64,000 nt of DNA from an uncultured Gammaproteobacteria bacterium (lineage in GTDB: Bacteria; Patescibacteriota; Microgenomatia; UBA8517): NCBI GenBank assembly GCA_964645605.1, contig CAZYCE010000001.1, positions 64,063-128,062 on the forward strand. The letters are read 5' to 3'. Position 1 is the stretch's first letter, and the number at the start of each line of letters is the position of its first letter. This document shows, piece by piece, positions 8,855-33,577 of this stretch. The notes under the pieces were generated by a model. It was not told the DNA's origin. It ran no database searches and worked only from the letters and a program-made list of their open reading frames with translations. A program made the translations under genes and the position numbers.

Positions 8855-8999
8855 GTTACCTAATATTTTACCGCAAGTAATAAATTTTTATTTAATTAAA
8901 ATTTTGCAGGAAAAATAGTTTTCAGGTTGGGTAAATATATACTTAATTTCCGGCGCTACAGGGAACGTGAAATTTTCACAGAATGTTTCCCGAAATTTA

Positions 9000-9419: not shown

Positions 9420-9443
9420 GCAACTAGTGTAACAGAAAAATTG

Positions 9444-15645: not shown

Positions 15646-16677
15646 TTAGTTTTTAAAGGCGGGCAAATACATCAGAATATTGACAGAATTGCCGATGTTA
15701 TTAACTGAAGCGGTTCCTTCACTAAGGAAAACCGGTTGAAGGTTTGCCCCACTCTGATTGTCTAAAAGATATACAACCGAAACTTTATTAATCTTTATGT
15801 TGGAGACATCACCTATTTTTAAATCCGGTAAGTTAACGTTGTTGTTATTTAAACTTACAATTATGCTTTGAGGGACCATTTGCAGGAACTCCTCATAATT
15901 CAAAATTGGATATCTTTCAGTTGACTCCTGAAAAACGTATCCGATATTACCTTTAAAGTTAAAAGGGGTACCGTCTTTTAACATCTGTACATACAACTGT
16001 GGCTCATCGGGGTTAACAGTAAATATTGGATAAACGGAAGGGCTTTGAGAATAATTTACCTGCACGATATCAGCATTTTCTTTTGTTGTTTTTAAAAGAT
16101 TCTCGATATTATCCGAAACTTTGTAATAGGTAAAATTGATAAATTTTAAATTGGTGTTATCAAGCCCAACCTTGTTTACCAGAAATTGTGACGCTATTGC
16201 CCGGTATTCGTTTTCGGTTACTTGCTTGTTAACAGTGTTTTTAATAAGTGTGCGAATACCCTTATTCGAAGAATAAAAAATATTGTTTGTTTTTAATATA
16301 ATTGTTAATGAATAATTATCATTATTCCATATCATTATTGTTCCGCTTTGTGCATCGTTCGCCACTATTGGTTTTAATGTAAAACCCATTCTCGCAGCAA
16401 TTTCGTTTGCCATAGATTCGCTAATAACACCGGGCGATATTGGTTTTAGAAAAGGCAGGTTTGGAGGAAAGCTAAAGTCTGATTTATTAATGTGACTTTC
16501 TATTGACAAACTACCTTCTTTAAAATAGTTTGTGATATTTAAAGGTTGACGAACGCCGTTTTGGTTTTCTTCCGTGTTGTTTTTTGCTTTTTTTAACGCC
16601 AAAAATATAAACAACAAAGACGCCACAGACATTATTGCTAAAATTAATATAATTAGCTTTTTATTTATTTTAAACAT
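15646..16677 (-). CDS. Secreted/membrane-anchored hypothetical protein (343 aa), first gene of the accessory island downstream of dnaN.
   Basis: N-terminal signal/anchor KLIILILAIMSVASLLFIFLAL. No known motif. Confidence 0.4.
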   Translation of the reverse strand: MFKINKKLIILILAIMSVASLLFIFLALKKAKNNTEENQNGVRQPLNITNYFKEGSLSIESHINKSDFSFPPNLPFLKPISPGVISESMANEIAARMGFTLKPIVANDAQSGTIMIWNNDNYSLTIILKTNNIFYSSNKGIRTLIKNTVNKQVTENEYRAIASQFLVNKVGLDNTNLKFINFTYYKVSDNIENLLKTTKENADIVQVNYSQSPSVYPIFTVNPDEPQLYVQMLKDGTPFNFKGNIGYVFQESTERYPILNYEEFLQMVPQSIIVSLNNNNVNLPDLKIGDVSNIKINKVSVVYLLDNQSGANLQPVFLSEGTASVNNIGNSVNILMYLPAFKN

Positions 16678-16682
16678 CTTTT

Positions 16683-19427
16683 TTACGGTATGTAACCACA
16701 GTAATTGAATTCATCTGAACAGTTTCTTTTAATATTTTTAGGTATATACGGTGGCTCCATGATTATTCCTCCTATAAATTCATAATGCAAATGAGGTCCC
16801 GTTCCTTGGGTTCCTGAAAGTCCTATTGGTTGTCCAAAGCCGATTTCTCCGTCTTTGGCGAAAACAACAGAAAGATGTGCATACCTTACGGTTACCTGTT
16901 TTCCTCCACAATCGGAAGAAACGTCAACATAATTTGGCCCGTAGGCGGCAACTCCCCTAACAACATTTGCTACGCCGGTAGAAGTTGATTGGACGTGTGT
17001 TCCTACGGGTACGGCAATATCAATAGCCTCATATCCTCGATGACTATAACCACCGTTTGGTGTCTGTGTAATCGGATAACTACCCAATATCGGCCAACCG
17101 GCAGGACACGTATCTGGGGGGTTTCCGATTTTGATTGATGTCGTTGCGGCCGTTTCCTGTTGACCACCATCGGCCGTGTTGGCGCTCACAGTGACAGTAT
17201 TTATTACAAGAGAGTCTTTATACTCACCGCCTGAATAATTTGACTCGTATGAGTAGGAGTATGGACCACTGGTTACAATTTCACCGGGAATATCTGAGGC
17301 AGACGGGGTGTTTGAAGGACATTTCTTGTTTCCCGCAGCAGAAATTATTTGACAATCATCTTTTATTGAGATGTTTGTCAAAGTGCTCTTTTTTGCATTG
17401 ACGGTAACATTATAGGAAACTTTAAGAGGGAGACTTGAATTTTGAAACGGTCCGGAAGGACTGACGTCTTTTTGTACATGTATATAAGGATTCGTGCTCG
17501 TTCCCGCGGTGGCAGTAGGTGGTACTATGTACGCTCCTGAGTTGATAATAAAAAGTATAAAAGCCACAAGAATTGGAGTAACCAATACAGTGATAAATAT
17601 AGGCATAAAGATGGGTGCGATAGCCAATTTACCCAAGGTAACAAAGAAACCTCCAATGCTTGTGCCAACAGCCCCTAAACTAACACTTCCTGCTGACACA
17701 GCAGCAGAAACTCCAAAAGCCCCAAGTCCGGCAATAATTCCCACAACAGGCCCTGCAATCAAAAAGGCTCCAAGACCTATGACGGCACCAATTATGTAGT
17801 CTGCATTCTTTTTAATCCATGGCCCCACCTTTTCCAGAATTTTTCCAAAAACTGCTCCGATAATTAATCCCGCAATTGTGCCGATAACGGGAATTATTCC
17901 AGTTCCAACCGTTGCCCCAACTTTTGCGGCCGCCGCTTGCATACCAAGTTTACTAAGTAAAGAAGACGCACCTCTAGCGATAGCGTTTCCCAGTGTGATA
18001 TTCAAACTTTTTCCTGCGACTGCTTTGGCAACGGCCCCTTCAGTTATTCCCTCCGCAACAACGGCACTCTCGGCAACAATCGCACCTTCCGTGGCAATCA
18101 TCTCGGTTGCAACCGGGGCGACAGCCTGAATGCCTACATTTATACCTAATCGCCCGGCGATATTTGTTATTAATGGGGCATAACCAGGGAAAGCTGTGGT
18201 GATAAGTTTTCCAAAAGAACTGGTACCAACATATTCAAAGTTGGTTTGTAAACCCAAAAACGGGGCTATGCTGTCAAATGCTTGAGAATTGGCAAAACCG
18301 GAGATTTTTCCAAGTGATCCAGTTGTAGTCAAAGATTTTGTTTTTGACAATGCCAACACCTTAAGCTTTGATTCGGCAATCCCCTTTACACTCTCAGTTA
18401 CCGGAGAATTAAAACCGTCGGAGATATCTCCTTCCTGGAAAGAAAAGGAATTATTCTGAAGTTGACCCAGTTTAATTGTAAAAGCTCCGTCAGATTTTTC
18501 AGTGGATAAAATATACTGCTGCTCGACCGGACCCAACACCGTGTTTGTAATATTTTCGCCGAGGGTTCTTAGGAGAACTGTTCTGTAAAGGTTGTCATTA
18601 CTTTCTGAAAACACCGTGAGCATGGATGTTGTTTTTACCAACTCTCTTTGTGCTACGGAACTTAGATCGGGTATCAGTTCAGGAGCCTTTGCGGTCGCAG
18701 CAAAAACTCCCACGGGGACAGGTTTTTGGGCCGGATTAATAAGAGCTTGGGTAGTATCTACCGCAATAATTTGGGACAAGGGTTCTAATATTTCTTTCGG
18801 AATATCCGGATTTTTCTGAGATATGAGTTGCGAAAGTTTTTGAGAAAAGAGCTGAGAATCATTCTTGGCAATATCCACTAGTTTTTGTTCGTTTTCAGAA
18901 AAAATAATATCCGGAACTTTTGTAGCGGGTACAGCATACAAGGTTTTGTCGCCAATCTCTGTCAATACATTCTTTTGGATATCTTTGGGGGCGGCTTGAA
19001 TAATTTTGGCGCGCGATTCATATATCTCCTGCTGTTTATTTATAGATTTTCTTACAGCTTCTTCAGCTTTTGTTTTTGTTTCAAGACTTTCTGTCTCACG
19101 TTTCCGTCTTTCGAGTTCCTGCAACGCGCGTGCTTCCTTGTCCGGCACGTTTGCTTCAACCGGCTTTTCCTCGTTTTCGGATTCTCCCACAAGTTTCTCT
19201 ACAGCAAGTTCTGCCTTTTTAATATTTTCAATATCTTTATCGGACTTTATGCGGATGCCGGTTAGCCTGTAAACAAAATCTATGAAATCGCTTCTGTTTT
19301 TCCAATTAAATTCTCCAGAAACATATGGCTTATCAGAAGAATATATAGCGTCTTCAGGGAAGAAATGGGCAAAGGCAAACCTTAGATAATTTACATTTTC
19401 GGAGGTCAAGCTGATCTTATTTGCCAT
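16683..19427 (-). CDS. Giant (914 aa) membrane protein. Cytoplasmic coiled-coil N-terminus, Gly/Ala-rich multi-helix membrane region, and a C-terminal extracellular M23 (LytM-type) metallopeptidase domain. Candidate cell-wall-remodelling component of the secretion/pilus apparatus.
   Basis: C-terminal GYSHRGYEAIDIAVPVGT… and GPHLHYEF (HxH) motifs are characteristic of M23 peptidases. A glycine-zipper-like hydrophobic block spans residues ~430-620. Directly adjacent to the VirB4-like ATPase. Confidence 0.6.
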   Translation of the reverse strand: MANKISLTSENVNYLRFAFAHFFPEDAIYSSDKPYVSGEFNWKNRSDFIDFVYRLTGIRIKSDKDIENIKKAELAVEKLVGESENEEKPVEANVPDKEARALQELERRKRETESLETKTKAEEAVRKSINKQQEIYESRAKIIQAAPKDIQKNVLTEIGDKTLYAVPATKVPDIIFSENEQKLVDIAKNDSQLFSQKLSQLISQKNPDIPKEILEPLSQIIAVDTTQALINPAQKPVPVGVFAATAKAPELIPDLSSVAQRELVKTTSMLTVFSESNDNLYRTVLLRTLGENITNTVLGPVEQQYILSTEKSDGAFTIKLGQLQNNSFSFQEGDISDGFNSPVTESVKGIAESKLKVLALSKTKSLTTTGSLGKISGFANSQAFDSIAPFLGLQTNFEYVGTSSFGKLITTAFPGYAPLITNIAGRLGINVGIQAVAPVATEMIATEGAIVAESAVVAEGITEGAVAKAVAGKSLNITLGNAIARGASSLLSKLGMQAAAAKVGATVGTGIIPVIGTIAGLIIGAVFGKILEKVGPWIKKNADYIIGAVIGLGAFLIAGPVVGIIAGLGAFGVSAAVSAGSVSLGAVGTSIGGFFVTLGKLAIAPIFMPIFITVLVTPILVAFILFIINSGAYIVPPTATAGTSTNPYIHVQKDVSPSGPFQNSSLPLKVSYNVTVNAKKSTLTNISIKDDCQIISAAGNKKCPSNTPSASDIPGEIVTSGPYSYSYESNYSGGEYKDSLVINTVTVSANTADGGQQETAATTSIKIGNPPDTCPAGWPILGSYPITQTPNGGYSHRGYEAIDIAVPVGTHVQSTSTGVANVVRGVAAYGPNYVDVSSDCGGKQVTVRYAHLSVVFAKDGEIGFGQPIGLSGTQGTGPHLHYEFIGGIIMEPPYIPKNIKRNCSDEFNYCGYIP

Positions 19428-19429
19428 CT

Positions 19430-21295
19430 TTATTTATCTCTATATGGACTGGTATTGATTTTTACTACATCTTGTGGTTTGGTAGTAATTAATTTGTTTT
19501 CGCTTTCTGAGGCAACAACCCTGATTGGGGCATGGTGGGGGCCTGCAAAAAAGATTCCCTCTCCCACATTGGCTGCCAAAAGAAGGCGCTTTTCGCCCTG
19601 GGACAAATAAAACACTTCTCCTATTTTGTCGATTGCTGCCGGAGATTGTTTAAAAAGTACCTGCATGGAGCTATTTGTAACGATCGCCTTACCTATATCC
19701 TGTCCCAAAAAGTCCTCGACGTCCTGAGTGATAGTGGTAAGGCCAAGATAATATTTTCGGGCTCTTTTTACAACACTCCACAAAAACTGGGCAGTATCGG
19801 GATATTTCATCATTTGCCAGGCCTCATCAACAAGCAAGACCCTCTTTTTTAAATCCTTTTTGATTCTGTTCCAAATGTAGTCAAGGATGACAAACATGGC
19901 AATCGGCCGAAGGACGTCTTGAAGGTCTTTGACGGAGAATACCGTGAAGGGGTTTACAATATTTATATTAGTTTGTTGGTCGAAAATTCCGACAAAGCTT
20001 CCTTTAACGAATTTTTCTATACGTGCGGCCAAATCAAGAGCATCGGCAACCTCCATGCCAATCAGGGTTTTATAAAGATCTTCCATTAAAGGGGGTTCTT
20101 TTCCCTGAGTATCGGGATCCATTGTTATTCCTTTTGCCCGGTAGGTCATAATTAGAGCTCTATCAAGAAGTGCCTCCTGGGTTGGAGTAATGGCTCCCAT
20201 GATCACTTTCATTAACGAGTGCAGAGACAAGATCTTAAGACCCAATTGGTTTTCCCCCTCCTCTCTTATTTGGGACAGATCAAATGGGTTAATTTTCGCG
20301 CTGGAATTAAACGAAAAAGCTATATACTCTCCGCCCACAGCTTCAGCTATGCTTTTATATTCACTTTCGGGATCGATAACTATAGTCTCTATCCCAACCA
20401 TAAGAGATCTTAATGCCTCTAATTTTACAAAATATGATTTTCCTGCTCCGGATGTTGCAAAAATTGTCATGTTGGCATTGGGAAGGGTGAATCTATCGAA
20501 AATAATAAAAGATTCGTTTTGGGAATTCATGCCGTACAAAACCCCCCTATCGCTTGAAAGCTCTGTTGAAGTTAGGGGAAATGTGGTGGCAACGGACGTA
20601 GTATCCATGTTCCTGGTTATATTAAGCCTATCTATTCCAAAAGGAGCGGTTGCCAAAAACCCTTCAGCCATATCAAGCGTTGCGTGTTTGCTGAGAACCA
20701 TTAAGGAACCAAGCTGAGATTCAACTTGTTTAGTTACTTGGTTAAGTTCTTCTACGGAGTTGGCGGGAATAGTTATGTAAAAAGCGAATTCATAAAATCT
20801 CTCAATTCCTTTTACAAGTTGTTCTTGAAGGGCCTGTGCATCTTCGAGTTTTGCTTGAGTAACAGGGTCCACTATCTTTCCGCGTTCGATGTCGGTATTC
20901 ATTTCCGCTTCCATTTCAGCAATTTTGCGCCTGAGATCGTCAAGTACGGTTTTACCGTCAACTGGATAAATGTAAAAAGATATATCAAGAGATGTGTCAA
21001 TATTAACAACCGGTTCAAGCCAGCCCGGGGTAACAAACCTTGGGTATCCTCCCACAAAAATTGTCCTGAAATAGACGTCGTTAACTTTTATATAATCAAA
21101 ATCAACCTCGACTGATTGTGGCGAGATGACATCAAGCAAATTATTTTTCTGGGCAATTACAGAATATGCGGGCGAGAGAACAGGAGGCTTTATCTCCGGT
21201 TTGGGGACGGCTGTTTGAGGGCTATTGGTTCTTGTTTGAGTTTCTTGTTTTTTGTCCATATTTTTAAACTTTGGGTGCAACTTCTCTATCTTCAA
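19430..21295 (-). CDS. virB4: VirB4/TraE/TrbE-family conjugative type IV secretion ATPase (Gram-positive PrgJ/TcpF-like).
   Basis: Walker A FATSGAGKSYFVK and Walker B VLLVDEAWQMM. N-terminal FRT…GYP…WL region typical of VirB4/TraE. Length 621 aa. Confidence 0.85.
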   Translation of the reverse strand: MKIEKLHPKFKNMDKKQETQTRTNSPQTAVPKPEIKPPVLSPAYSVIAQKNNLLDVISPQSVEVDFDYIKVNDVYFRTIFVGGYPRFVTPGWLEPVVNIDTSLDISFYIYPVDGKTVLDDLRRKIAEMEAEMNTDIERGKIVDPVTQAKLEDAQALQEQLVKGIERFYEFAFYITIPANSVEELNQVTKQVESQLGSLMVLSKHATLDMAEGFLATAPFGIDRLNITRNMDTTSVATTFPLTSTELSSDRGVLYGMNSQNESFIIFDRFTLPNANMTIFATSGAGKSYFVKLEALRSLMVGIETIVIDPESEYKSIAEAVGGEYIAFSFNSSAKINPFDLSQIREEGENQLGLKILSLHSLMKVIMGAITPTQEALLDRALIMTYRAKGITMDPDTQGKEPPLMEDLYKTLIGMEVADALDLAARIEKFVKGSFVGIFDQQTNINIVNPFTVFSVKDLQDVLRPIAMFVILDYIWNRIKKDLKKRVLLVDEAWQMMKYPDTAQFLWSVVKRARKYYLGLTTITQDVEDFLGQDIGKAIVTNSSMQVLFKQSPAAIDKIGEVFYLSQGEKRLLLAANVGEGIFFAGPHHAPIRVVASESENKLITTKPQDVVKINTSPYRDK

Positions 21296-21980
21296 TTACC
21301 TCTGGTTCCTTTTTGACTGTAGGTTTCTCGGGATTATAAATTGAGTAAAAAAGATTAATAAGCTCGGGGGTTGTAAGTTGTTTAAATTTAATTCCAAGCC
21401 GGCCGGCCTGGCGAATTAGATGATCGCGTCTTGGATAAAGAACAATTTTGGCTTTTTTAATGACATACGATTCCGAAAAAGGAAGGGTTTCTCCCCGTTT
21501 TGTCAAAGCCGCAACAGATTTAGCCACCCCCAGTTCAAGGGGGGAAAGATAAAGAACTACGAAAAACCTTTTGCCCAAAACATTTTTCTTCTTAACGGAT
21601 TCAGAAATGAAGTTTTGATAATCTTGCATAAGTTTGGAAAGAAGGGGTTGCGTAATCTTTTGAGACTGGTCTTTTAGAAAATTTAAATACGACGAGATAT
21701 CCTTCTTCTGAGTTAGAACGACAATCTGTATTGAAAAACTGAGGGAATTTATCATTGCGGCATAGGCTGCGATGACCGCTTCTTGTTCCTTTTCGGATAA
21801 AAGACCGAAGTTAAGGGATGTTGATTCCATAACAAGTGCGGCTCCACCATCTTTGTAAAGAGCCATATCATTTGTGATGTCCGCCACAGGTACAAAATTT
21901 TGTGTAGTTGAATTAAGAGGAGCATCGGGTAATGTTAAAAAAGGAACCCTTAACTTTAATTTTGGTATTATTTTTGCCAT
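21264..21980 (-). CDS. Hypothetical cytoplasmic protein (238 aa) within the T4SS-like island.
   Basis: ORF only. Its 3' end overlaps the virB4 start, suggesting translational coupling. Confidence 0.35.
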   Translation of the reverse strand: MAKIIPKLKLRVPFLTLPDAPLNSTTQNFVPVADITNDMALYKDGGAALVMESTSLNFGLLSEKEQEAVIAAYAAMINSLSFSIQIVVLTQKKDISSYLNFLKDQSQKITQPLLSKLMQDYQNFISESVKKKNVLGKRFFVVLYLSPLELGVAKSVAALTKRGETLPFSESYVIKKAKIVLYPRRDHLIRQAGRLGIKFKQLTTPELINLFYSIYNPEKPTVKKEPEVIEDREVAPKV

Positions 21981-23048
21981 TTAATTATAAATTGTCTGAC
22001 CATTTACGTTTACAGGAACTTGCTGTGTTGTTGATTGTATAAGCCTTCGACCCTCGACAAGTATGGGAGGAACAATTTCTCCCTTGGCCTCAAAATTTAC
22101 AGGCATGAACTGATAACCCTCCTTATCGCTGATGATGCTGTATTTTCCATTATCAAGTGGGGTAACGGCAATAAAATGCCCTAGCTTATTACTTCTGAGG
22201 GCTCTTATCGGACGGCCATATTCATCTCTAATTTCAATGATTGCTCCTTCGACAATTCTTCTTGCCTCATCAACTACTTGGCCAACAATTACGTTTGGAT
22301 TTGTGGGGGGGTTTGGGGGGGCAGCGTCAATCGAGAAAATGGCTTCCTTGGTGGAAACAATTTCTTCGCCGACAATAGTCGGATTAACATTCTGCGTTTT
22401 AATTTGTACTGTCTGGGAAACCGGTTGGGGTTTTTCTTCAACCACCAGGTGTGTCGGTTGTTGTGGCTGGCTGATTTTAACAGGCATGGTAGTTGGAATT
22501 TCCAGCTTTTTGGGTTGGGGAGGGGTGGTTGGGGCAGTTGCCACCTGAGGGGCTGCCGGCGTTGCCGCAATCCTTATCCCTGTAAGCATGTCGGATAGTT
22601 TTGTCAAGAAACCCTGTTCAGCTCCCTCCAGCTTTGCAAGAGGCCCTGGAGGGGCTTTAGTGGCGTTAAGGTAACTTTTGAGAGCCGCTTCCTGACTCTG
22701 TGTCTGTGTGTTTGGTATATTGGTGGTTGGTGTATCATCTGCAAAAAATTTGGGAACTTCTGTAGTTTTTTTCCATCGGAAAATGGTGGGGGAATATATT
22801 GCTCCGAAAAATGCCAAGATCCATTGTTCGAGAGGACGTTCTTGAAGTGGAACAAAAGCCATGGCAGCTCCCAAAATTACAGATACGATTACAAATGGCC
22901 ATTTTATTATTCCGATAAGGGGGGAGGAGTAAAAAACAAGTCCCACCAATACCCCTCCGGCAAGTTCAAAAAATTGCTTCAGGGTCATGTCTCCCACAAG
23001 TTTGAACTGGTATGAACTAACGTTTTGCGGTATCGGATGTTGTTCCAT
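21981..23048 (-). CDS. Membrane protein (355 aa) with two N-terminal TM helices, a Pro/Thr-rich linker and a C-terminal extracytoplasmic domain. Possible VirB3/VirB8-like scaffold of the island.
   Basis: Hydrophobic helices at residues ~30-50 and ~52-72. PTTPPQP-type linker. Functional call is inference from position only. Confidence 0.35.
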   Translation of the reverse strand: MEQHPIPQNVSSYQFKLVGDMTLKQFFELAGGVLVGLVFYSSPLIGIIKWPFVIVSVILGAAMAFVPLQERPLEQWILAFFGAIYSPTIFRWKKTTEVPKFFADDTPTTNIPNTQTQSQEAALKSYLNATKAPPGPLAKLEGAEQGFLTKLSDMLTGIRIAATPAAPQVATAPTTPPQPKKLEIPTTMPVKISQPQQPTHLVVEEKPQPVSQTVQIKTQNVNPTIVGEEIVSTKEAIFSIDAAPPNPPTNPNVIVGQVVDEARRIVEGAIIEIRDEYGRPIRALRSNKLGHFIAVTPLDNGKYSIISDKEGYQFMPVNFEAKGEIVPPILVEGRRLIQSTTQQVPVNVNGQTIYN

Positions 23049-23192
23049 AAAGACAGTAAAAGCAGAAAGCTCTACTCTAGGTTAAGATTAGCGCGTGAAG
23101 TATTCTGTGCAAGAAGTATCGTTTTTCACAGTTTTAATTTTCTTTTATCTCTTGCCTTTCATCTTTTATCTGTGATGTTATATAATTTGCAT

Positions 23193-25817
23193 ATGCCCGA
23201 CAGTATGTCATCAGAGAATAGACCAATTACACCAGATTTTCATATAGGAGCTCCGGCAAAACTTCCGGCGAATGAGACTTCGATGCAGGCTGCACAAAAC
23301 GAGTTTAAACCTGAGTGGAAATCTAGCATGTCTGATATAAGGATGCAGCTTGGAAATGGAGGAAAGGATGATGGGGAAGGGCTTAATATTATGGATTTGA
23401 TTAGGGCAATGTCTGGTAGGGCGGCTACTTCTGGTTTGGAAAAGTTTAGTAATGGTTTGCAGGGCATAGCTGAGACAAAAGAGAGGATGGGTGATATAGA
23501 GAATGGATTGGGGAGCAATAAATATATCGGGGACGAAAAAGATAAAAAAGAAGAGGAGCAATTGATGCTCAAGGAAAAACTAGAAAACTTGCATAATTCG
23601 CTTAAGAAAAAATACAGCACCATGCAAGAACAGTCCATTTCTGTAGTAAACGATTTATTTGTTGTCTCTGTTGACCAAAAAAAGAATGCCTATCCTTATG
23701 ACCACAGAACAGCTGAACTGACAATCAAAACAATATTGGAGACGGCACAAACCCTACAAGAAGAAGAATGGGCTGACGATCCGGAACTTTCTCTTTGGTT
23801 GAAGAGAATGGAAAGAGATGCTACATGGATGGCGGGACTTTTGCAGGTTTCTGTTGGGCAATCCGCCTCAGCACCATATTTTTTTGATGTCGTGATGCAG
23901 ATGCAAGTATTAAAGGAAAGATATAAAGCTTTTATAACTTCGGAAGATTTAAAAAATATGCACGCAAAAGAACTTCCTGGTTTGGAATTCAGTAGTGACG
24001 AAAAAGCCAAAATGGATGAAAAGGGCATTGGTCTAAAAGTTGATGATGAATATAGAACTTTAGTAGAAAATACCCCTCCGGAAAAAAGATTATTGTTCAA
24101 TAAAGAGGAAAGTGTTGGTCTAAGAGAATTGGGGGTTAAAATGATTGATTCTAGCTTTGCTATGAGAATGCGAATTGCTGCTGTCTCGCAGTCCGATTTG
24201 GCAGCACCAAACGGAGACAAAAATACTTTTATGGGTGATTATTTAAAACCTGAAGAGATTGCTTTTTTTAGAGACCTTTTATTAAGAAGAAACCCAAAGG
24301 GAGAATATTACATATTGTCTCCCCACATGGCCTCAATGGATAAAGACAAAAGAGACGCGACAGCTTATCTAGAGGCCTTACTTTTGACCAACGCGGAAGA
24401 AAGACTAAATAGCATCATTGCTAATGACTCGGTGAACAAGGAGAACTTGATTTCTGAATTAGTCGAAGATGTTAAAGAGAAAGCTACCTATAGAATTACG
24501 AACTGGAAATCAAGAGACAATGGAGATATTGTTTCTCAACTGGCCTCTTTAGTAACAAAACAGGGTTTATATGAAGATTACGCATTTTTAAACGCCTATA
24601 AATATTGTTGGGAATATACTTGGGCGATCGGCTCGGACGGCAAGTTTAAGAAAGTTGGGGTTGAGACAGCAGGCATTTATTCATATTCAGGAGATATTTA
24701 CAGTTTGTATTACATGAGAAGGGCAGCTCAGTACGATAGAAGTTCGAATTCTAGGACTCAGCTTCTTCTTCCGACGAGCAAAGCAGGCAGAAAAGAACTG
24801 GACCTAATGCCCTATGACAAAATGCCTGAATATAAACCAGGCATGCCTGGTGACCAAGATCGTTTTTTGGCCGACCAGTGGGATTTTGTTTTTGGTACTG
24901 ACCCTAAATCTAAAAAGGCTAGAGAAACCATGGGATACGTCGATATTCCGCAGCAGGTTGCTGATAAGCTTAAAAGTTGGGCCGTGTCTTGGAAAACTCC
25001 ATACAATAGTAAATATGTGGAGAATGACACTAGTTACGAATTGGTTGTTCCACATTTAATGCCACCAGGGCTAGATATAGCCTGCTTTTTAGATGCGATA
25101 CCTAGCAGTGAAACAAAATTAAACGCAGGGGGAAAGAGTGTTTGGCAGAGCATGGTTGAAGGAAAAAGGTTCTCAGAAGTAAATTGGGATATACAGGAAA
25201 ATTTACCAGTAGACAGGTGGTATGTTGATTTGGATATGGCCTCAAGGTATATGAATGTTCTGATCGGAGTTTTTGACAAAGAGAAGGATCCAATAATGGG
25301 TCTTATCAACGAAGGTCCGTCTACTCTTGCACCCAAAGAGTTTGCTAAAAGGTTAAGGCTGTCCTTCCGCGATAGCCCGAAGGGGTACCCAGAGGAATAT
25401 GAAGTTGCTTTTATCCCATTTATAGTTACACTTTCTAGTATTCAAAAATATGACCTCACCTCTGCTAGCGCGTGGCATGATGTTGATAAAAGCAATATGA
25501 CCTCCGTAGAACACTTTCTTTTGGAAATTTCTAAGTGGCAGAGAGCATTCAAATGGTTACCTTCTGATAGACCAAATCCCGCACTACTCTCACGTGATTC
25601 TGAAGGTAACGTCTTGGAATGGGATTACGGAAACACAATGGCTCTTTTGATGGAATTTTATACAGGGGTGCTTCTTCGTGTAGCTAAAAGCTCTGCCGAA
25701 GAGTCTGCCCGTATGGCATCTAAGAATTATCAAAACACCATTAGTCGTCTGAACGAAATGCCCTTCATTGGAAACGGTCTTTTGGATAGAAAGCCAAGCA
25801 AGAATTTGATACCGTAA
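23193..25817 (+). CDS. Large (~874 aa) soluble hypothetical protein, the only plus-strand gene inside the island. Possible secreted substrate/effector or regulator. The ORF-track start at 23025 is probably an upstream extension.
   Basis: Long uninterrupted ORF with normal composition. TATAAT at 23181-23186 sits 6 nt before the in-frame ATG at 23193, suggesting a leaderless transcript. No TM segments. Confidence 0.45.
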   Translation: MPDSMSSENRPITPDFHIGAPAKLPANETSMQAAQNEFKPEWKSSMSDIRMQLGNGGKDDGEGLNIMDLIRAMSGRAATSGLEKFSNGLQGIAETKERMGDIENGLGSNKYIGDEKDKKEEEQLMLKEKLENLHNSLKKKYSTMQEQSISVVNDLFVVSVDQKKNAYPYDHRTAELTIKTILETAQTLQEEEWADDPELSLWLKRMERDATWMAGLLQVSVGQSASAPYFFDVVMQMQVLKERYKAFITSEDLKNMHAKELPGLEFSSDEKAKMDEKGIGLKVDDEYRTLVENTPPEKRLLFNKEESVGLRELGVKMIDSSFAMRMRIAAVSQSDLAAPNGDKNTFMGDYLKPEEIAFFRDLLLRRNPKGEYYILSPHMASMDKDKRDATAYLEALLLTNAEERLNSIIANDSVNKENLISELVEDVKEKATYRITNWKSRDNGDIVSQLASLVTKQGLYEDYAFLNAYKYCWEYTWAIGSDGKFKKVGVETAGIYSYSGDIYSLYYMRRAAQYDRSSNSRTQLLLPTSKAGRKELDLMPYDKMPEYKPGMPGDQDRFLADQWDFVFGTDPKSKKARETMGYVDIPQQVADKLKSWAVSWKTPYNSKYVENDTSYELVVPHLMPPGLDIACFLDAIPSSETKLNAGGKSVWQSMVEGKRFSEVNWDIQENLPVDRWYVDLDMASRYMNVLIGVFDKEKDPIMGLINEGPSTLAPKEFAKRLRLSFRDSPKGYPEEYEVAFIPFIVTLSSIQKYDLTSASAWHDVDKSNMTSVEHFLLEISKWQRAFKWLPSDRPNPALLSRDSEGNVLEWDYGNTMALLMEFYTGVLLRVAKSSAEESARMASKNYQNTISRLNEMPFIGNGLLDRKPSKNLIP

Positions 25818-26068
25818 CTTTCAACCGAACAGCTTCCTTCAGAGGAGATTTTGGACAATCACAATTTACTTTTTATTTAAACGACCGTCCTTGCTCATTT
25901 GCGAAATGTAATCTTTTATCCAGTTTGGTAATACCCTCGAGACCCAAACTCGATTAGCACTCTCGGGTGACAATTTTTTATTCAGACCAGTGTAAACTTT
26001 TCTGCTTACGATTTCGTTGAGATCGGTTTTTATATTTTCTACCCCCATTTTTGTTATTATGATATTTA

Positions 26069-27685
26069 TTATTTGGGATTAGTCCTATTGGGATTAGCCC
26101 TATTATTTACATAATCTTTAAACCATTGCGGAGCCTTTGAGGATTTGCCACTGATCGCTTCCGGATTTATCCTTTTATTTAAGTTTCTATAGAAATTCTG
26201 AGCGCCAACTTCTCCTCCATATTTTCTAATTGCCGCGATCTGAGGACCCATTGTTTGCCCATAGACCCCCTTAATGGTTCCTGTGGCTTCACCAATTGCA
26301 CTTCCATAGTCAAACGGTTTGCCGGAGAAGAATGATTGGACAATCTCGGCAGCTTTTGTGATCTGACTGAATATGAAAAAACTTACAAACACCCATATCA
26401 ATTGACCCCCATTATGCTCCGCATTGGTACCTACCCCAAATGGGGGATTCCATGTGTCGGAGCCAATCATGTTAACAACCGGCCTGAAAGGAGTGGAATA
26501 GGCTTCCCTTTCGGCTTCGATGGTCATACCTTGTTTCAGGAAGAAAAAAGAAAAGAAAATCATCACAACCATGACCGGGTATATAGCCAGGTAGGACGCA
26601 ATTCGTTTTAGCCAGCTTCCAAAACCGATTTTGGAAGACACCGCACCCATCATTATTTCAAGAGGTCCTGTTGCAATGGAAATCATAAGCATGGCGAAGT
26701 TTTTGATCATCACAAATATGATTTTTAGTGACCACCAGAGTATTGGAAAGATAGAAAAAACTGAAACAAGCAGAAGCAAAATACCAGCCCACCACATGTT
26801 TCCGCTGTTGACAATTGCAAGAAACGAATTCATTACAAAGTGAACCCAGTAAGTGTACATAAGACCAAACCCGTCAAATGTATAAAGAAACTCATCAAAT
26901 AATTTTGAAGGGGCAAGAGCGCTCAGTCCGCCGGTACTGATAATGGTTGAGATAAGTCCAATAACCAAGTACATCAAATCAATTAAAAATCCGGCGATAG
27001 CATAAGAAAAGGTGATCAGAACCATAGACACGATCAATTTCGGAAGGGCAGACTGGACAGTAATTACAGTTTGAGGGTTAATTTTTACTCTAAACATAAT
27101 CATAAAAGCGATGACAATGACGGCAACCACAAGGAGACTGAAACTCAAATTTCTAAATACTCTCCAAAGGCCAACCATGGATTGTCCTACGTTAAAACCA
27201 ATTCCATTATCGGCCGCTTTGACGCTTGAGACGGGTGAAAGTTTTTGGAATAAATTATTAAAGTATCCGACACCGGAAAGCGGGCTTTTAGAAACAGTTT
27301 CTAAATAGCTTGAAGCTAAACTTTGGTTGTCGTTTGCCGTGGCTTGGGAATTAACAATTTCATCAAATTTACCCAAACAATTGTCAAAATTTATACTGCC
27401 TCCGACCATACACAAAAATAAGTCCGGATTTCCCGGGAGAAGATTGAGAAGTGTTGACGGCAAACTATAAAGAATCCATTGAACTTGGGCTGCGGTATAG
27501 CGCTCTCCAAAAATTTCACTTGATGGAGAAACGGATTCGTCATAGACTTTTCCATACCAGTCAAGAAAATTCTGGTTGTACCATGTGTTTTGTTCGGCTT
27601 TAGCTTGGAAAAGGGTAGCGGATGAAAAAAGGAGAACAATACCGATAAATGTTGAAAAAACTATTTTTTTGAGCAGGGTAGACAT
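26069..27685 (-). CDS. Polytopic membrane protein (538 aa). N-terminal signal peptide and large extracytoplasmic loop followed by ≥6 TM helices. VirB6/TrbL-like channel candidate.
   Basis: Signal-like N-terminus (IVFSTFIGIVLLFSSATLFQAKA). Multiple long hydrophobic helices in the C-terminal two thirds. VirB6 assignment is by architecture and context only. Confidence 0.45.
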   Translation of the reverse strand: MSTLLKKIVFSTFIGIVLLFSSATLFQAKAEQNTWYNQNFLDWYGKVYDESVSPSSEIFGERYTAAQVQWILYSLPSTLLNLLPGNPDLFLCMVGGSINFDNCLGKFDEIVNSQATANDNQSLASSYLETVSKSPLSGVGYFNNLFQKLSPVSSVKAADNGIGFNVGQSMVGLWRVFRNLSFSLLVVAVIVIAFMIMFRVKINPQTVITVQSALPKLIVSMVLITFSYAIAGFLIDLMYLVIGLISTIISTGGLSALAPSKLFDEFLYTFDGFGLMYTYWVHFVMNSFLAIVNSGNMWWAGILLLLVSVFSIFPILWWSLKIIFVMIKNFAMLMISIATGPLEIMMGAVSSKIGFGSWLKRIASYLAIYPVMVVMIFFSFFFLKQGMTIEAEREAYSTPFRPVVNMIGSDTWNPPFGVGTNAEHNGGQLIWVFVSFFIFSQITKAAEIVQSFFSGKPFDYGSAIGEATGTIKGVYGQTMGPQIAAIRKYGGEVGAQNFYRNLNKRINPEAISGKSSKAPQWFKDYVNNRANPNRTNPK

Positions 27686-27725
27686 ATATTTATTCTAGAC
27701 TGTTATATTAAAAAATCAAAGAGTC

Positions 27726-28334
27726 CTAAAGTAAACCATAGGTTCTTATCCAAAGGTCAGCTGTTTCTTGAATGAAAGTTCTTTGACCAAAGATAAAATA
27801 AATATTATGTATATCCACCCCTTTTGTGGCAAGCAATTTTTTAATCTGTTCAAACGAATCAATAAAAGCGACAACATTTGGATTGGTTTCTTTCGATGGA
27901 TCCTGGTTCCTAAAATTAATTCCATAAATTTCTACATGGACAAGATACTCCGGGTCGCTTGGAATGGTATAGACATTTAAGGTGGTTAACATTCCGTTAG
28001 AGTTTTTAAAACTTTCAATGTAAATTGGCAGGCTGCCTTTTAACTTATTTTTGCTTTCAATGGCGGTAATTACTTTGTCGGATGTCATATCAACCTGCCC
28101 CGCGATATTTTCGGGAGGTTTTGAGTATGAAGGTTCTACAAAATTACCGGAAACAGGAGTTGCGGAAATTGATATTGAATTTTGTTCAGCTTGACCGGCG
28201 GGCTGTGCTGAAGATTGGAGGGCTTCCCCGCTCTGATTTTTGGTGGATAATTGAATAAAGACGAGTATCAAAATTGCCACAATGGATAGAATTATGTAAA
28301 TTTTGTATTTTGAAATAAAATTTCTCATTCTCAA
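27726..28334 (-). CDS. Membrane-anchored hypothetical protein (202 aa).
   Basis: Single N-terminal TM (IYIILSIVAILILVFIQL) followed by an extracytoplasmic domain. Confidence 0.35.
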   Translation of the reverse strand: MRMRNFISKYKIYIILSIVAILILVFIQLSTKNQSGEALQSSAQPAGQAEQNSISISATPVSGNFVEPSYSKPPENIAGQVDMTSDKVITAIESKNKLKGSLPIYIESFKNSNGMLTTLNVYTIPSDPEYLVHVEIYGINFRNQDPSKETNPNVVAFIDSFEQIKKLLATKGVDIHNIYFIFGQRTFIQETADLWIRTYGLL

Positions 28335-30920
28335 TTAATGATTATATAACTCTGTTGCCACAGTTAAGGCCCCCGGTCTACCGTCGATTGGGTAAGGCAG
28401 GGGACATTTTGTGTAATCCCAGCAATAGATGATATTCATCTTAAGGTGGCTGTAGTCTATCCAGTTTACGGTATAATTATGGTCAATGCCCTCCGGCGGA
28501 GGGCAGGGACCAGAGTAAATTGAGTTAGTATCAGAACAATTACTGTTACCAGGCCCATTGTACCGCATAAGCGCTGTAATAAGCTCATTCCAAGAGTCAA
28601 TGGTACCTCCAACGGCACCCGCAAGCTGCCATCCTGCCGTTTCCGCCGATTCCAAAAGACAACCCTGTATTGGACCTCCGTTCTGAAGAGACTGGTTGGG
28701 GTTATTGCTTCCTTCGCGAAAATGGATTCCGGCCAAGACTTCGCAGGGAACACCGGTTCTTCTCTCAGCCTCTTTATAAACAGCTAAAAGATCGGAAGAA
28801 AGATAGGGAAAAATATATGTTTCAAAATAATTTTTACCCGATGCGGTTGTTTTTGGCGGCGGATTATATTTACTAAACACGCTTCCGTCGCACGTTCCGG
28901 GTGGAACTTCTTCATTAGAGCACTCCGTCGGTAGGCCTATTTCTGGAAGAGATGAAGAATTAGCAAAAGCGATAGGATCTCCATACCCTTTTGGCCTTAA
29001 GGCGGTTTGAATGCCCTTTAAAAAATACTCGGAAATTCCACCCAGGTGGGGAAGCTTTAAATCTGTATTGGCGCTTGATACGTCTATATTGGTTCCAGAA
29101 TAGGTAACGTTTATGGACCCGGGAATGTCCATTATTTGCCCGACGCTTCCTTCTGTGTTGGTTTTGGGAAAAATTCTTTTAAATATTGACATGGGGCCTG
29201 CCACCAAACGTGACCATATATTATCAACCAAAGGAATTTTGGTTTGTGTGGACATTCCGATATAAATATCTTTAGTACATTTTTGGATTTGAGAAACACA
29301 ATTATTGCCGCAAGTTGTTCCGGTTGGACAATCTTGTTGACCAAATGTGTTGGCACAAATCCAACCGGTTGGGGCACACCTTCCGCCAACAGCGTAACAA
29401 GCATTAGAAGTAGATGTGGCAGGAGATGCTTCGTATTCGCAGGTAAACTGGGCGGTATAACCTAAATTTCCTCTTATCTGACTGGCAAAAAGGTCGTCTC
29501 CGGGGTTTGAACGGACTTCTACCGAAGAGCAGGCTGAGCTTTTTGCCACTTGAGTAGGATCCCCCAATTTTCCTTCGCTCGTTGCAACAAAAGTGCTTTG
29601 GAGTAGACCACCAAGTTGATCTACCTCTCCCATGTGAGATAGGTATATTTTAGATGTTGATGAAGATTCAAAAGTTATGTCTTTAACAACGGTTCCGTTC
29701 GAGGAAGGAATTAAGGTCAAAGATTGATTGTCCATCTTAATTTCTCCCTCGACATCCTCCGTGGTGGAAAGAGGCACATAGGGAAAAAGATCCGAATACA
29801 TATTGGGAATTATTAAGTTCTCAACACATACAAGATGTTTCACTAAGGGGACAATTACACAAGTTTTACCGTGCCATTCATAATAAGCCTTGCGGTAAAG
29901 AAGTTCGCTGGCAAAAGGCTTCGCTGGCTCCCCTGGATCTGCTGTGCCATCATCCCATGGAAGTGGGGGGGTGGCCTTGTTCCATGCGGAAGATAAAGAT
30001 GTATCAATATTCCCTTGAATCATCTCCGTTACCATAGATTCGGGGAACAACTTAAGCAAACTTTCTAGGACAAATTTTATTCCGTCGGGGAAAGCGTTTG
30101 CTATAGATCTGGCCCAAGAGATCTTGTCGTCCCAGCCGTAAGCGTTACGATCAATTGATTCTGCTTTTAATCTAAAAATTTCGCCTTGCGTCTCAGCTCC
30201 ACCTCCTTTATAGCATTCAATTGGCTTAACGTATCCAACATTCAAGAGATTTCTGATTGGACCGCCGCGTGTGGCACAGGCAACAATTTGATTGTGATTT
30301 GTTTCTCTGGCATTTTCGATTGTCTTAATTCTTTGGGCGTTTAGAATGGCATCGGGCAGGAGTTTTTGCAGAGGTCCCGAAAGATTAACTGTACTATAGT
30401 CATCACTTTTTGAGCTGCCATATTCGGCTTGATTTATAACCCCATTTAAATACCAACTGGCATAGCTATTCATTTTTTCCTGATCACTAAGATTATCTGC
30501 CGCGTTTGTTGAATTCGTCACATCTTCGGTATTGCCCATAATTGGAAGTTCTGCACCGTTTAAATTAATACCAATAGGTTTATTAACCTCTACAGTGTAA
30601 TCACAATATATTTTGTTGCCGGTGGTTGTGCAGCTGTCGGTCTGGTCTCCCGGATATTGAACTTCGACAGTGTCTTTTATTGTTAGGTCGTTTCCGCAAA
30701 AGGTAGCCGTGTTTGTATCATATGTTACGCAAGGTCTTGCCCTGTATGGTCTTAAAGAGTTAAATTCAGGATTTATTACCTCGTTACAGCTGACTATAGC
30801 TGGTAGAGGAGTTTGTGCGCAGATATTCCTTGGGGATATGAGATTATAACCAAGAACCGAAAATACGAATAAACAAGAAATAAGTAAAGTACTTTTTCTC
30901 GGACAGTGCATAATAATCAC
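28335..30920 (-). CDS. Large (861 aa) secreted Cys-rich protein. Possible cell-wall hydrolase or adhesin associated with the secretion/pilus apparatus.
   Basis: N-terminal signal peptide (LLISCLFVFSVLGYNLISP). Many Cys residues in CxxC/CxC clusters. The C-terminal region (…GVPCEVLAGIHFREGSNNPNQ…) is globular. No confident family match from memory. Confidence 0.4.
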   Translation of the reverse strand: MIIMHCPRKSTLLISCLFVFSVLGYNLISPRNICAQTPLPAIVSCNEVINPEFNSLRPYRARPCVTYDTNTATFCGNDLTIKDTVEVQYPGDQTDSCTTTGNKIYCDYTVEVNKPIGINLNGAELPIMGNTEDVTNSTNAADNLSDQEKMNSYASWYLNGVINQAEYGSSKSDDYSTVNLSGPLQKLLPDAILNAQRIKTIENARETNHNQIVACATRGGPIRNLLNVGYVKPIECYKGGGAETQGEIFRLKAESIDRNAYGWDDKISWARSIANAFPDGIKFVLESLLKLFPESMVTEMIQGNIDTSLSSAWNKATPPLPWDDGTADPGEPAKPFASELLYRKAYYEWHGKTCVIVPLVKHLVCVENLIIPNMYSDLFPYVPLSTTEDVEGEIKMDNQSLTLIPSSNGTVVKDITFESSSTSKIYLSHMGEVDQLGGLLQSTFVATSEGKLGDPTQVAKSSACSSVEVRSNPGDDLFASQIRGNLGYTAQFTCEYEASPATSTSNACYAVGGRCAPTGWICANTFGQQDCPTGTTCGNNCVSQIQKCTKDIYIGMSTQTKIPLVDNIWSRLVAGPMSIFKRIFPKTNTEGSVGQIMDIPGSINVTYSGTNIDVSSANTDLKLPHLGGISEYFLKGIQTALRPKGYGDPIAFANSSSLPEIGLPTECSNEEVPPGTCDGSVFSKYNPPPKTTASGKNYFETYIFPYLSSDLLAVYKEAERRTGVPCEVLAGIHFREGSNNPNQSLQNGGPIQGCLLESAETAGWQLAGAVGGTIDSWNELITALMRYNGPGNSNCSDTNSIYSGPCPPPEGIDHNYTVNWIDYSHLKMNIIYCWDYTKCPLPYPIDGRPGALTVATELYNH

Positions 30921-30937
30921 ATTATATCAGCTTGGAC

Positions 30938-31222
30938 TTATGGAGAAATCATTAGATTAAACTGTGTGACATCAACACCTGTAATGTTACTTATAATTAC
31001 AAGGATTATATAAGAAACCAAAATTACAATAAGGCCTATTACCGCGGAAGTAATTGTTTTTTTTGCTCCCTCTGCCGCTTTTGGATCGCCACCCGAAGTG
31101 ATAAACCCGAAACCTCCTATTAAAAGAAGGATGAAGAAAACTATTCCGGCAAGTCCTAATGCATAACCAATCACTCTTTGTAGGATACCGCCCAAATCAG
31201 ATATTTTTGCTACATCATCCAC
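30938..31222 (-). CDS. Pilin-like two-TM small protein (TrbC/VirB2-like, T4SS pilin family), paralog 8 of the tandem array.
   Basis: 94 aa. Helix, then loop ITSGGDPKAAEGAKKTITSAVIGLIVIL, then a second helix. The motif is shared with seven neighbouring genes. Confidence 0.55.
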   Translation of the reverse strand: MDDVAKISDLGGILQRVIGYALGLAGIVFFILLLIGGFGFITSGGDPKAAEGAKKTITSAVIGLIVILVSYIILVIISNITGVDVTQFNLMISP

Positions 31223-31260
31223 GAAAACATTCTAACCTAAACAATTATTTTGAGCAATTA

Positions 31261-31602
31261 TCAAAGATTAATAGTCGGGATCGCGAGGTTGAAGATGTCT
31301 ACGTGGAAGATAGTGTTTATAAGGGCAACTATGGCCCAAGCCGCAAAGACTATAACAAGGCCAACCAAAGCCGCCGTAATCTGATTCCTAGCAGCCTCTG
31401 TTTTGGCCTTATCACCGCCGGAGGCGATCCAGCGAATCCCACCGATAACCAAAATAAAGAAAAATATTATAGCGGCAACAATCACAACAAGCCTTATCCC
31501 TACAGAGATAATGCTTGGAATAGTTAAATTGCCCAATGCGCTAAACTGAGAATCGGAAGACGGTTGAAGGTTGATAGTGTCCTCCGCAAGTAATTTCAAC
31601 AT
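31261..31602 (-). CDS. Pilin-like two-TM small protein (TrbC/VirB2-like), paralog 7.
   Basis: 113 aa. IASGGDKAKTEAARNQITAALVGLVIVF motif between two hydrophobic helices. Confidence 0.55.
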   Translation of the reverse strand: MLKLLAEDTINLQPSSDSQFSALGNLTIPSIISVGIRLVVIVAAIIFFFILVIGGIRWIASGGDKAKTEAARNQITAALVGLVIVFAAWAIVALINTIFHVDIFNLAIPTINL

Positions 31603-31623
31603 ATTTATATTATATACGTATTA

Positions 31624-31983
31624 TTAAATAATTAGCTTACCGATGTCAATACTCAGAATGGAAACGTGGAAAATGTCTTGTATAAGTCCGATTATTGCAA
31701 AAACAGCAAAGAGAATAACAAGACCCACCAACGCGCTGGTAATCCTACTCCTTGCTTTTCCGACTGCCTCTTTATCTCCTCCTGAGGAAATCCACTGAAT
31801 TGCCCCCACCACTAAGTTGAAAAAGAAAACAATCGCACCGACTATCAAAATCAAGGTAACTGCCATCGGAAGAAATTTCTGAAGGAAGCCAATAGAGTTG
31901 GGGTCTTGTCCCAAGGTTGACGGAAGCACGGGGTTTACAATTGAACCCTGAGCCAAATTTTGAGCGATTAAATTATTTAACAT
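31624..31983 (-). CDS. Pilin-like two-TM small protein (TrbC/VirB2-like), paralog 6.
   Basis: 119 aa. ISSGGDKEAVGKARSRITSALVGLVILF motif. Confidence 0.55.
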   Translation of the reverse strand: MLNNLIAQNLAQGSIVNPVLPSTLGQDPNSIGFLQKFLPMAVTLILIVGAIVFFFNLVVGAIQWISSGGDKEAVGKARSRITSALVGLVILFAVFAIIGLIQDIFHVSILSIDIGKLII

Positions 31984-32357: not shown

Positions 32358-32370
32358 GCTTTCAATTTCA

Positions 32371-33196: not shown

Positions 33197-33242
33197 AACA
33201 CCATTTTAGTATAGAGTTTTACTTAAGACAAGTGAGTGGATT

Positions 33243-33575: not shown

Positions 33576-33577
33576 TT

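Follow-up and report, generated by a model that had tools for sequence, protein, structure and literature searches.

A conserved N-terminal tag on exchangeable bodies at a fixed position of a Microgenomatia chromosomal type IV secretion locus: a tentative cargo candidate

It has already been described that systems for type IV secretion (T4SS) are widespread in the phylum Patescibacteria, where they occur without a relaxase and, usually, without a nearby coupling protein (Quinonero-Coronel et al. 2025, PMC12102498). In the relevant sections of this survey and of a second one (Wang et al. 2023, PMC10633639) the loci adjoin dnaA/dnaN, contain a TrsD gene and, especially in Microgenomatia, arrays of pilin genes, have no relaxase, and are judged non-conjugative, with substrates unknown. 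The same sections report that the system is needed for epibiotic growth in one species tested by transposon sequencing (PMC10633639), and that 2,272 TrsD homologues occur in 2,221 assemblies, about one per assembly (PMC12102498); genes without a profile match are left unannotated there, and no substrate is named. Here we describe a locus of this type in a window of 64,000 nucleotides, that is, the whole stretch of DNA analysed (positions 64,063 to 128,062 of contig CAZYCE010000001.1, GenBank assembly GCA_964645605.1, deposited as an uncultured Gammaproteobacteria bacterium and placed by GTDB in Microgenomatia, UBA8517), and in particular a plus-strand gene lying between prgI-like and g538, two of its minus-strand genes, which we call the slot gene. 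Like the published MPF-FATA-like systems, the window locus combines a VirB4 of monoderm type with a TrsD encoded separately, a protein resembling PrgI/VirB3 and an array of VirB2-like pilins; it also adjoins dnaA/dnaN, and encodes neither a relaxase nor a coupling protein nearby. The plus-strand slot gene, the tag at the N-terminus of its product and the polymorphism of the body that follows are not mentioned in the sections of PMC12102498 and PMC10633639 that deal with the locus.

The product of the slot gene is modular. Two proteins, P0015 (764 aa) and P0016 (867 aa), match it over its first 6% only, with 91% and 79% identity, respectively; what they have in common with it is limited to about residues 1–52, and the remainder is unrelated, the two being 47–54% identical to each other over aligned segments. 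The N-terminus of P0015 is nearly the same as that of the window protein, and the N-terminus of P0016 nearly the same as that of P0002, an orthologue of the window protein with 79% identity. Together with two metagenomic relatives, P0015 and P0016 make up what we call family X, whereas the window protein belongs to family A, represented by a profile of 57 sequences; in a profile–profile comparison of the two families only residues 1–56 align (probability 93%), and the bodies do not align at all. The gene of P0015 lies between PrgI and the orthologue of g538, and that of P0016 comes after VirB4, TrsD, PrgI and a small bAvd-like gene. In nucleotide sequence, the window is 91% identical to locus L016, which carries an unrelated body, over 23139–23345, a stretch that begins 54 nt upstream of the ATG and ends at codon 51; past 23345 the two cannot be aligned until inside g538 (65% DNA identity), and the adjacent 5' end of prgI is only 78% identical. 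In a four-way DNA alignment similarity stops right after PDIRMQL, and TGTTATATAATTT.C.TATGCCC is invariant in four loci with three different bodies.

The comparison of whole loci tells the same parts apart. The identity of L001 to the window is 89% for VirB4, 83% for TrsD, 76% for PrgI, 49% for the tag (residues 1–56), 71% for the body (57–874) and 40% for g538; in the same order, L025 shows 88, 78, 76, 56, 20 and 37%. L017 has 85, 82 and 72% for the three core proteins, 79% for the tag and 47% for g538, with no similarity in the body, and in L016, where VirB4 and TrsD are off the contig, PrgI is 88% identical (first 41 residues only), the tag 91% and g538 54%, again with none in the body. Since the core is 72–89% identical while the bodies are 71% or 20% identical or unrelated, the body fails to track the core machine; L016, whose flanks are the closest to those of the window, has no body similarity. 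The tag, instead, follows the flanks, and is closest in this respect to the fast-evolving g538. Tag identity (91, 79, 56 and 49%) rises with g538 identity (54, 47, 37 and 40%) and not with that of the body, which may reflect co-evolution, or merely the shared ancestry of the flanks. In no related locus is the slot empty: it is always filled by one soluble protein of 750–1000 aa. The exchange of bodies probably came about by recombination, the breakpoint lying immediately behind the tag. We had also considered the slot protein as a conserved core component evolving vertically, and dropped this because related loci show a replaced body.

The tag is defined by the motif MPD...PEW[KR]SxxPDIRMQ, which in the window protein has the form MPD...PEWKSxxPDIRMQ; the predicted local distance difference test (pLDDT) of the AlphaFold2 (AF2) model is below 50 for residues 1–71. 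PEW[KR]SxxPDIRMQ is conserved, with synonymous changes, across subfamilies of family A that are only about 20% identical and in family X, and the synonymous differences inside the tag point to selection at the level of the peptide. In the metagenomes of the Joint Genome Institute (JGI), a DNA-pattern scan for W[KR]xxxPDIRM[QE] returned seven genuine tag-motif loci, and all six that reach flanking genes correspond to the same T4SS slot, with bodies of family A or family X-like. One locus, L023, is a short fragment, in which PrgI flanks one side and the slot protein is covered for its first 65 residues only. All seven have a −10 hexamer 6–9 nt before the ATG. No second tagged protein was found in the 64-kb window.

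The limits of the slot gene were settled by its homologues. A sequence-only reading of this DNA had noted the plus-strand open reading frame (ORF) 23025–25817 as a soluble protein of 870–930 aa, with 23193 as the first plausible ATG. The ORF was confirmed, and the ambiguity in length comes down to 874 aa from the in-frame ATG 23193, because 13 full-length homologues (39–79% identical in the alignment) align from a common MPD/MAE start; one homologue called with a longer N-terminus has the same MPD internally. The version deposited at NCBI (P0113) has 926 aa and starts at ATG 23037; since this start reads through the promoter and overlaps the start codon of the divergent prgI-like gene, the 926-aa version is probably over-extended, and the NCBI start of the gene appears to be wrong. 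Solubility could also be upheld: no transmembrane (TM) segment or signal peptide was found in the protein, the maximum Kyte–Doolittle hydropathy over 19 residues being 1.27, and thus any export would start from the cytoplasm, with no Sec signal.

The TATAAT reported 6 nt before the ATG is indeed there, at 23181–23186, followed by TTGCAT and by ATG 23193, so that the hexamer occupies positions −12 to −7 relative to the A of the ATG. The wider motif, tgTTATATAAT, had been called near-consensus; it is not a canonical extended −10 for TATAAT, because its TG is 3 nt upstream, and becomes one only if the hexamer is shifted to TATATA. A −35 element is missing at a spacing of 16–18 nt (TTGCCT at 23152–23157 sits 23 nt away), and a generic promoter scan did not flag the hexamer. 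The sequence upstream of the ATG (...TGTTATATAATTTGCAT) has no Shine–Dalgarno (SD)-like motif (GGAG, GAGG or AGGA). In the standard sigma-70 geometry the hexamer lies at −12 to −7, and thus the 6-nt spacer would set +1 on the A of ATG 23193; a primary sigma-70 factor is encoded in the window, at 47945–49024. We compared the upstream DNA of the slot gene in 18 independent related loci. A TAnnAT hexamer (TATAAT, TACAAT or TAAAAT), usually preceded by TGn to form an extended −10, is separated from the ATG by exactly 6 nt in 14 of them; the spacing is 8–9 nt in three, and one is without such an element. The upstream DNA is otherwise diverged among these loci, and the 6-nt geometry is kept where the proteins are from 20 to 100% identical to the window protein or unrelated in body; such recurrence is, from the sequence comparison, far above chance. 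There is, therefore, good comparative support for a putative mRNA that is leaderless or has a leader of 0–3 nt, and it is on this geometry that we infer the transcription start.

The suspicion that this gene is leaderless thus gained from the comparison among loci and from the missing SD, but it did not turn out to be special to this gene. In the window TAnnnT occurs 5–9 nt before the first ATG in 24 of 62 crude gene starts (about 39%), against a background of 9.8% for all ATG trinucleotides and 4.5% for internal in-frame ATGs, and only 4 of the 62 starts have an SD-like motif; for these reasons the leaderless geometry is better described as a habit of the lineage. Initiation in this Microgenomates genome seems to be mainly leaderless or SD-less, a matter of importance for the calling of gene starts in genomes of the candidate phyla radiation (CPR); in the literature searched we found no account of the prevalence of leaderless genes in Patescibacteria. 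Leaderless genes of Actinobacteria and Deinococcus have TANNNT about 6–7 nt upstream of the start codon, Cortes et al. 2013 reportedly being an example. The window is similar in the hexamer at −12 to −7, in the lack of an SD and in the genome-wide, rather than gene-specific, occurrence of this arrangement, while the starts of the window organism are predicted from sequence alone.

No recognisable family had been seen for the slot protein, and this stands after searches of Pfam, NCBIfam, PHROGs, PADLOC and PDB sequences: the window protein, the 57 family A members and family X gave nothing consistent in the first four, and PDB sequences gave no match to the window protein, either as a single sequence or as a profile. 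Family A is small. An exhaustive profile search across 1.84 billion cluster representatives yielded just 95 relatives, which form four main subfamilies, about 20% identical to each other; where organisms are named, they are only Patescibacteria, the Microgenomates group or Candidatus Woesebacteria. A second homologue search with the 57-sequence profile, using a word prefilter, added one partial sequence (P0025), and a metagenome scan with P0036 had no match. The structure prediction suggested in the sequence-only reading, as a check for toxin or enzymatic folds, did give an AF2 model of the window protein (pLDDT 76, predicted template modelling score 0.76), with residues 1–78 disordered, then a long helical region and then a mixed alpha/beta region, but no toxin or enzyme fold came out of it: Foldseek against PDB and BFVD returned nothing at E below 1e-3. 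The AF2 model of family X, made from two sequences, had a pLDDT of 33 and was unusable. The body is therefore, as far as these comparisons detect, without a relative outside its own family.

Conserved positions are mostly W, P, R and D (for instance R311, Q333, K719, R720, R726 and W782), and the protein has well-conserved internal motifs, among them NAYPYDHR, RMxxAAVSQxD and PKExAKRLRLxFRD. The only histidine conserved in the clade of the window protein, H171, is replaced by Ser in the wider family's consensus (NPYPYDSR). Walker A, HExxH, HxxxH and CxxC motifs are all missing from the window protein. Several identities were tried and rejected: NTPase, metalloprotease or relaxase, because no motif matches; type IV coupling protein (T4CP; VirD4/TcpA), for want of a Walker A, a TM segment and a Pfam or NCBIfam match; conjugative relaxase, with no MOB profile match and no HxxxH/HExxH; known T4SS structural subunit (VirB1–B11, Prg, Trs), with no sequence or profile similarity; and paralogue of the cytoplasmic part of the 914-aa protein of the locus, for which hhalign gave a probability of 0.5%.

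The reading we prefer, though tentatively and with somewhat less than even confidence, is that the slot protein is an N-terminally tagged, exchangeable cargo or effector of the T4SS. The gene would be a fixed "cargo slot" of the chromosomal T4SS locus of Microgenomatia (Patescibacteria), transcribed alone from a −10-only promoter (extended −10 in relatives), with +1 at the A of the ATG, into a leaderless mRNA. The soluble product would be made in the cytoplasm as a disordered tag of about 53 residues followed by a body of about 820, and close relatives would keep tag and promoter while the body is swapped, by recombination after the tag, for a distant or unrelated one. On our inference the tag serves to dock the slot protein at the T4SS, near which no coupling protein is encoded; the body would be exported, as a cargo or effector that can be exchanged, and would reach the host cell, where it may act. 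A secreted substrate or effector had been proposed for this gene before, from its size and solubility; what the present analysis brings to the proposal, as separate and indirect support, is a module of promoter and 53 codons on unrelated bodies, in the same slot of close T4SS loci, but not a toxin or enzyme fold. Moreover, the slot gene is within the T4SS locus in every related locus with readable flanks, and a conserved, trafficking-like module is joined by a sharp junction to non-homologous variable parts, as in polymorphic toxins.

Several observations weigh against cargo or effector. The tag motif is patchy: only 29 of 91 full-length representatives have it (11/22 in subfamily A, 7/22 in B, 5/17 in C, 1/7 in D and 2/2 in family X), and the slot proteins of L004, L014 and L015 are without it, though the disordered N-terminus is kept. 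The usual C-terminal, coupling-protein-dependent T4SS signal is not evident, and the N-terminal motif corresponds to no known signal. The final 20 residues do tend to be basic across the family, a slight point in favour of cargo, but only mildly so, with a mean charge of +1.0 versus −0.35 for all 20-residue windows and a charge of +2 or more in 41% versus 17%; the tail of the window protein itself has a charge of +1. The variable part has no recognisable toxin or enzymatic domain, and no cognate immunity gene adjoins the slot gene in the window. In other loci the genes found just upstream show no BLASTP similarity among themselves, nor do they change along with the type of body; in L005 and L013, which have similar bodies, they are unrelated by BLASTP. 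Finally, families A and X may be either alternative alleles or two loci in one genome, although the figure of about one TrsD per assembly, in the section of the survey that gives it, favours one locus per genome (PMC12102498). Because a toxin domain and an immunity gene are lacking and a C-terminal signal is not evident, we do not file the slot protein as a polymorphic toxin or as a classical T4SS substrate; by analogy, it may nevertheless work like polymorphic effectors. A stronger version, that the N-terminal, disordered MPD...PEWKSxxPDIRMQ would be a new T4SS recognition signal working without VirD4-type coupling, and the slot a set of interchangeable effectors, injected into the host cells of Microgenomatia or deployed on them, whose swaps set the host range, we consider rather doubtful; were it true, the first substrates of the Patescibacteria T4SS would be identified.

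Alternatively, the slot protein might never leave the cell, and serve the T4SS as a cytoplasmic accessory subunit, either by standing in for the missing coupling protein as a substrate receptor or adaptor, or by taking part in assembly or regulation while attached to VirB4/TrsD via the N-terminal peptide. One copy at a strictly conserved position and orientation in the locus of the machine, down to about 23% identity, a soluble product lacking a Sec signal, a conservation intermediate between the ATPases and the envelope parts, and the absence of a T4CP gene from the locus would all suit such a subunit. It should, however, follow the phylogeny of the core, and in loci with VirB4 at 85–89% identity the body is 71% or 20% identical, or has no detectable relationship; nor does the protein have an NTPase motif (Walker A) or similarity to VirB, Prg or Trs components, and on balance we regard this explanation as unlikely. 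A further alternative is that the slot is a recombination hot spot for accessory genes of defence, conflict or another kind, unrelated to secretion, with the 5' module as a mere crossover site. Unrelated soluble genes between prgI and the slot gene in related loci, a HEPN–nucleotidyltransferase pair in L006, bAvd/23S_rRNA_IVP-like genes in L014 and L017, and a tag identity that tracks the similarity of the flanks rather than the type of body agree with this. Yet PEW[KR]SxxPDIRMQ is conserved as a protein sequence through synonymous changes, so that the peptide itself would be functional; the slot is never found empty, holding always one soluble protein of 750–1000 aa; and PADLOC and PHROGs have no match. 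A mere hot spot seems to us improbable.

Least probable of all, and in our opinion very unlikely, is an ordinary cytoplasmic housekeeping protein that happens to sit in the T4SS locus and whose leaderless start is the default of the genome. The leaderless geometry is certainly common in the window, and NAYPYDHR, RMxxAAVSQxD and PKExAKRLRLxFRD would suit an enzyme; a housekeeping role is, on the other hand, hard to reconcile with so tiny a family (95 representatives among 1.84 billion), with named organisms in Patescibacteria, Microgenomates or Woesebacteria only, and with a gene that, wherever flanks are readable, is found only in the T4SS slot and can be replaced by an unrelated body. The slot protein and its tag are concrete, testable candidates for the cargo and the signal peptide of this system, and the polymorphism of the body is a possible marker of the evolution of host range in an uncultivated class.

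The features of the locus are listed in Table 1. As had been stated, the neighbours of the slot gene are all on the minus strand, from 15646 to 23048 and from 26069 to 34423. The name "island" given to this region was, instead, a misnomer: the GC content is normal and uniform across the T4SS locus, and the same gene order next to dnaA–dnaN, with a plus-strand slot gene, is found in every related contig, even when the slot protein is about 23% identical. Because the gene order recurs in this way, the locus is, judging from synteny, a vertically conserved chromosomal T4SS locus beside dnaA–dnaN and not a mobile island. The function of VirB4 is split in two genes, for the TrsD/TraC-like N-terminal part and for the ATPase. 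The longest ORF of the latter overlaps TrsD by 32 nt, with no overlap if the start is ATG 21259, and the split is kept in all related loci, which excludes a frameshift artefact. The 914-aa protein with an M23 domain is a candidate cell-wall hydrolase in the role of VirB1, and g538 a candidate for that of VirB6; all related loci that extend far enough have an orthologue of g538 adjoining the slot gene. The T4SS_pilin array is also present in related loci. Its eight paralogues are divergent, and each has its own orthologue in related loci (44–82% identity), so that the array is old rather than recently amplified. A scan of the locus genes and of ten further large ORFs in the window turned up neither a VirD4/T4CP nor a relaxase, in agreement with the surveys cited above.

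Table 1. Features of the T4SS locus in the window, and extra genes located between prgI and the slot gene in related loci (coordinates of each locus).
Sequence	Feature	Position	Strand	Remarks
Window	dnaA	12952–14313		adjoins T4SS locus
Window	dnaN	14528–15640		adjoins T4SS locus
Window	single-pass protein		−	first of the minus-strand block after dnaN
Window	914-aa protein	16683–19427	−	central TM segments and C-terminal M23 peptidase domain
Window	VirB4-like T4SS ATPase, CD1110/MPF-FATA type	19430–21295	−	NCBIfam conju_CD1110, E=1.1e-108, above curated cut-off; Pfam P-loop_TraG
Window	TrsD/TraC-like protein, 238 aa	21264–21980	−	NCBIfam TrsD and VirB4_plasma; related to VirB4 N-terminal region
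Window	prgI/VirB3-like membrane protein, 355 aa	21981–23048	−	Pfam PrgI, E=1.5e-6; TM-like segments at residues 27–70
Window	divergent intergenic remainder	23049–23138		part of the 144-bp spacer between prgI-like and slot gene
Window	conserved promoter segment	23139–23192	+	−10 TATAAT 23181–23186; TG 23176–23177
Window	slot gene, coding sequence	23193–25817	+	874 aa, soluble, member of orphan family A
Window	N-terminal tag, codons 1–53	23193–23351	+	MPDSMSSENRPITPDFHIGAPAKLPANETSMQAAQNEFKPEWKSSMSDIRMQL; predicted disordered; common to proteins with unrelated bodies
Window	3' spacer	25818–26068		251 bp before the convergent gene; unusually long
Window	candidate 60-aa ORF	25866–26048	−	inside 3' spacer
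Window	candidate terminator-like hairpin and T-run	26009–26025	+	inside 3' spacer
Window	g538, polytopic membrane protein	26069–27685	−	signal-like N-terminus; convergent neighbour closing the slot
Window	g202, single-pass protein	27726–28334	−	between g538 and g858
Window	g858, large protein	28335–30920	−	signal-like N-terminus; no family match
Window	eight VirB2-like T4SS_pilin (PF18895) paralogues	30938–34423	−	array
Window	SpoIID		+	after the pilin array
L001	extra gene	8810–9904	−	
L004	extra gene	9309–9854	−	
L005	extra gene	8770–9912	−	
L006	extra gene	645–1319	−	
L010	extra gene	954–1715	−	DUF2268 zincin-like protein
L011	extra gene	2734–3762	−	
L013	extra gene	78–743	−	
L015	extra gene	9204–9920	−	
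L016	extra gene	248–766	−	
L017	extra gene	3358–3741	−	23S_rRNA_IVP/bAvd-like four-helix protein

Most related loci have one extra soluble minus-strand gene between prgI and the slot gene, where the window has none, and this position is, from the comparison of the loci, a second hypervariable one. On the other side of the slot gene, the spacer before g538 measures about 5–90 bp in related loci, against 251 bp in the window; no remnant of another cassette was found in it, with no similarity to the tails of other slot proteins. Two further insertions were observed in related loci: in L006 (5753–6248, minus strand) the HEPN and nucleotidyltransferase (MNT-type) genes lie between the g538 orthologue and a large secreted protein, and in L005 (3343–6918, minus strand) the VirB4 orthologue has 1191 aa and contains an intein that bears a homing endonuclease of LAGLIDADG type (Pfam Intein_splicing, LAGLIDADG_3). 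Elsewhere in the window, a group I intron is found at 51232–51530 on the plus strand (Rfam RF00028, 66 bits), with flanks to about 51578; its 3' flank corresponds to the T-arm and acceptor end of a tRNA (ggttcgagtcc...gggggagcca), and ARAGORN in intron mode gives an interrupted tRNA ending at 51578, so that this is probably an intron-containing tRNA gene. A transfer-messenger RNA (tmRNA) gene is located at 39309–39675 on the plus strand (Rfam, 143.6 bits; tag peptide ARNSFQAQPNYAVAYA), and four of the five tRNA genes near it are tRNA-Ser isoacceptors.

The combination of a conserved module with diverse bodies has precedents in other secretion systems. The T4SS effectors of Xanthomonas (X-Tfes) have a conserved recognition module, XVIPCD, on diverse bodies, and are delivered into other bacteria; XVIPCD is a folded C-terminal domain of about 120 residues to which VirD4 binds, and the bodies are cell-wall or lipid hydrolases with adjacent immunity genes. 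The slot proteins are similar in having a conserved module on diverse bodies and in their association with a T4SS. Their module, by contrast, is N-terminal, of about 53 residues and disordered, no VirD4 is present in the locus, and the slot protein shows no known toxin fold and no immunity gene in the window. Similar in architecture are polymorphic toxins, since LXG toxins of the type VII secretion system, PAAR/Rhs/MIX effectors of the type VI secretion system and CdiA have a conserved N-terminal trafficking domain. The slot proteins share with them a conserved N-terminus, a swappable C-terminus, a sharp breakpoint and the discordance with the core; they differ in the secretion system and in that no immunity gene or orphan cassette array is seen at slot loci, and what is exchanged is nearly the whole 800-residue protein instead of a short toxin tip. 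CagA, of the cag T4SS of Helicobacter, is a single family with C-terminal repeat variation, delivered to eukaryotic cells, and is not known to undergo replacement of the whole body. It is nevertheless similar to the slot protein in other respects, both being large, soluble proteins with an orphan fold, encoded by a transcription unit of their own within a T4SS locus.

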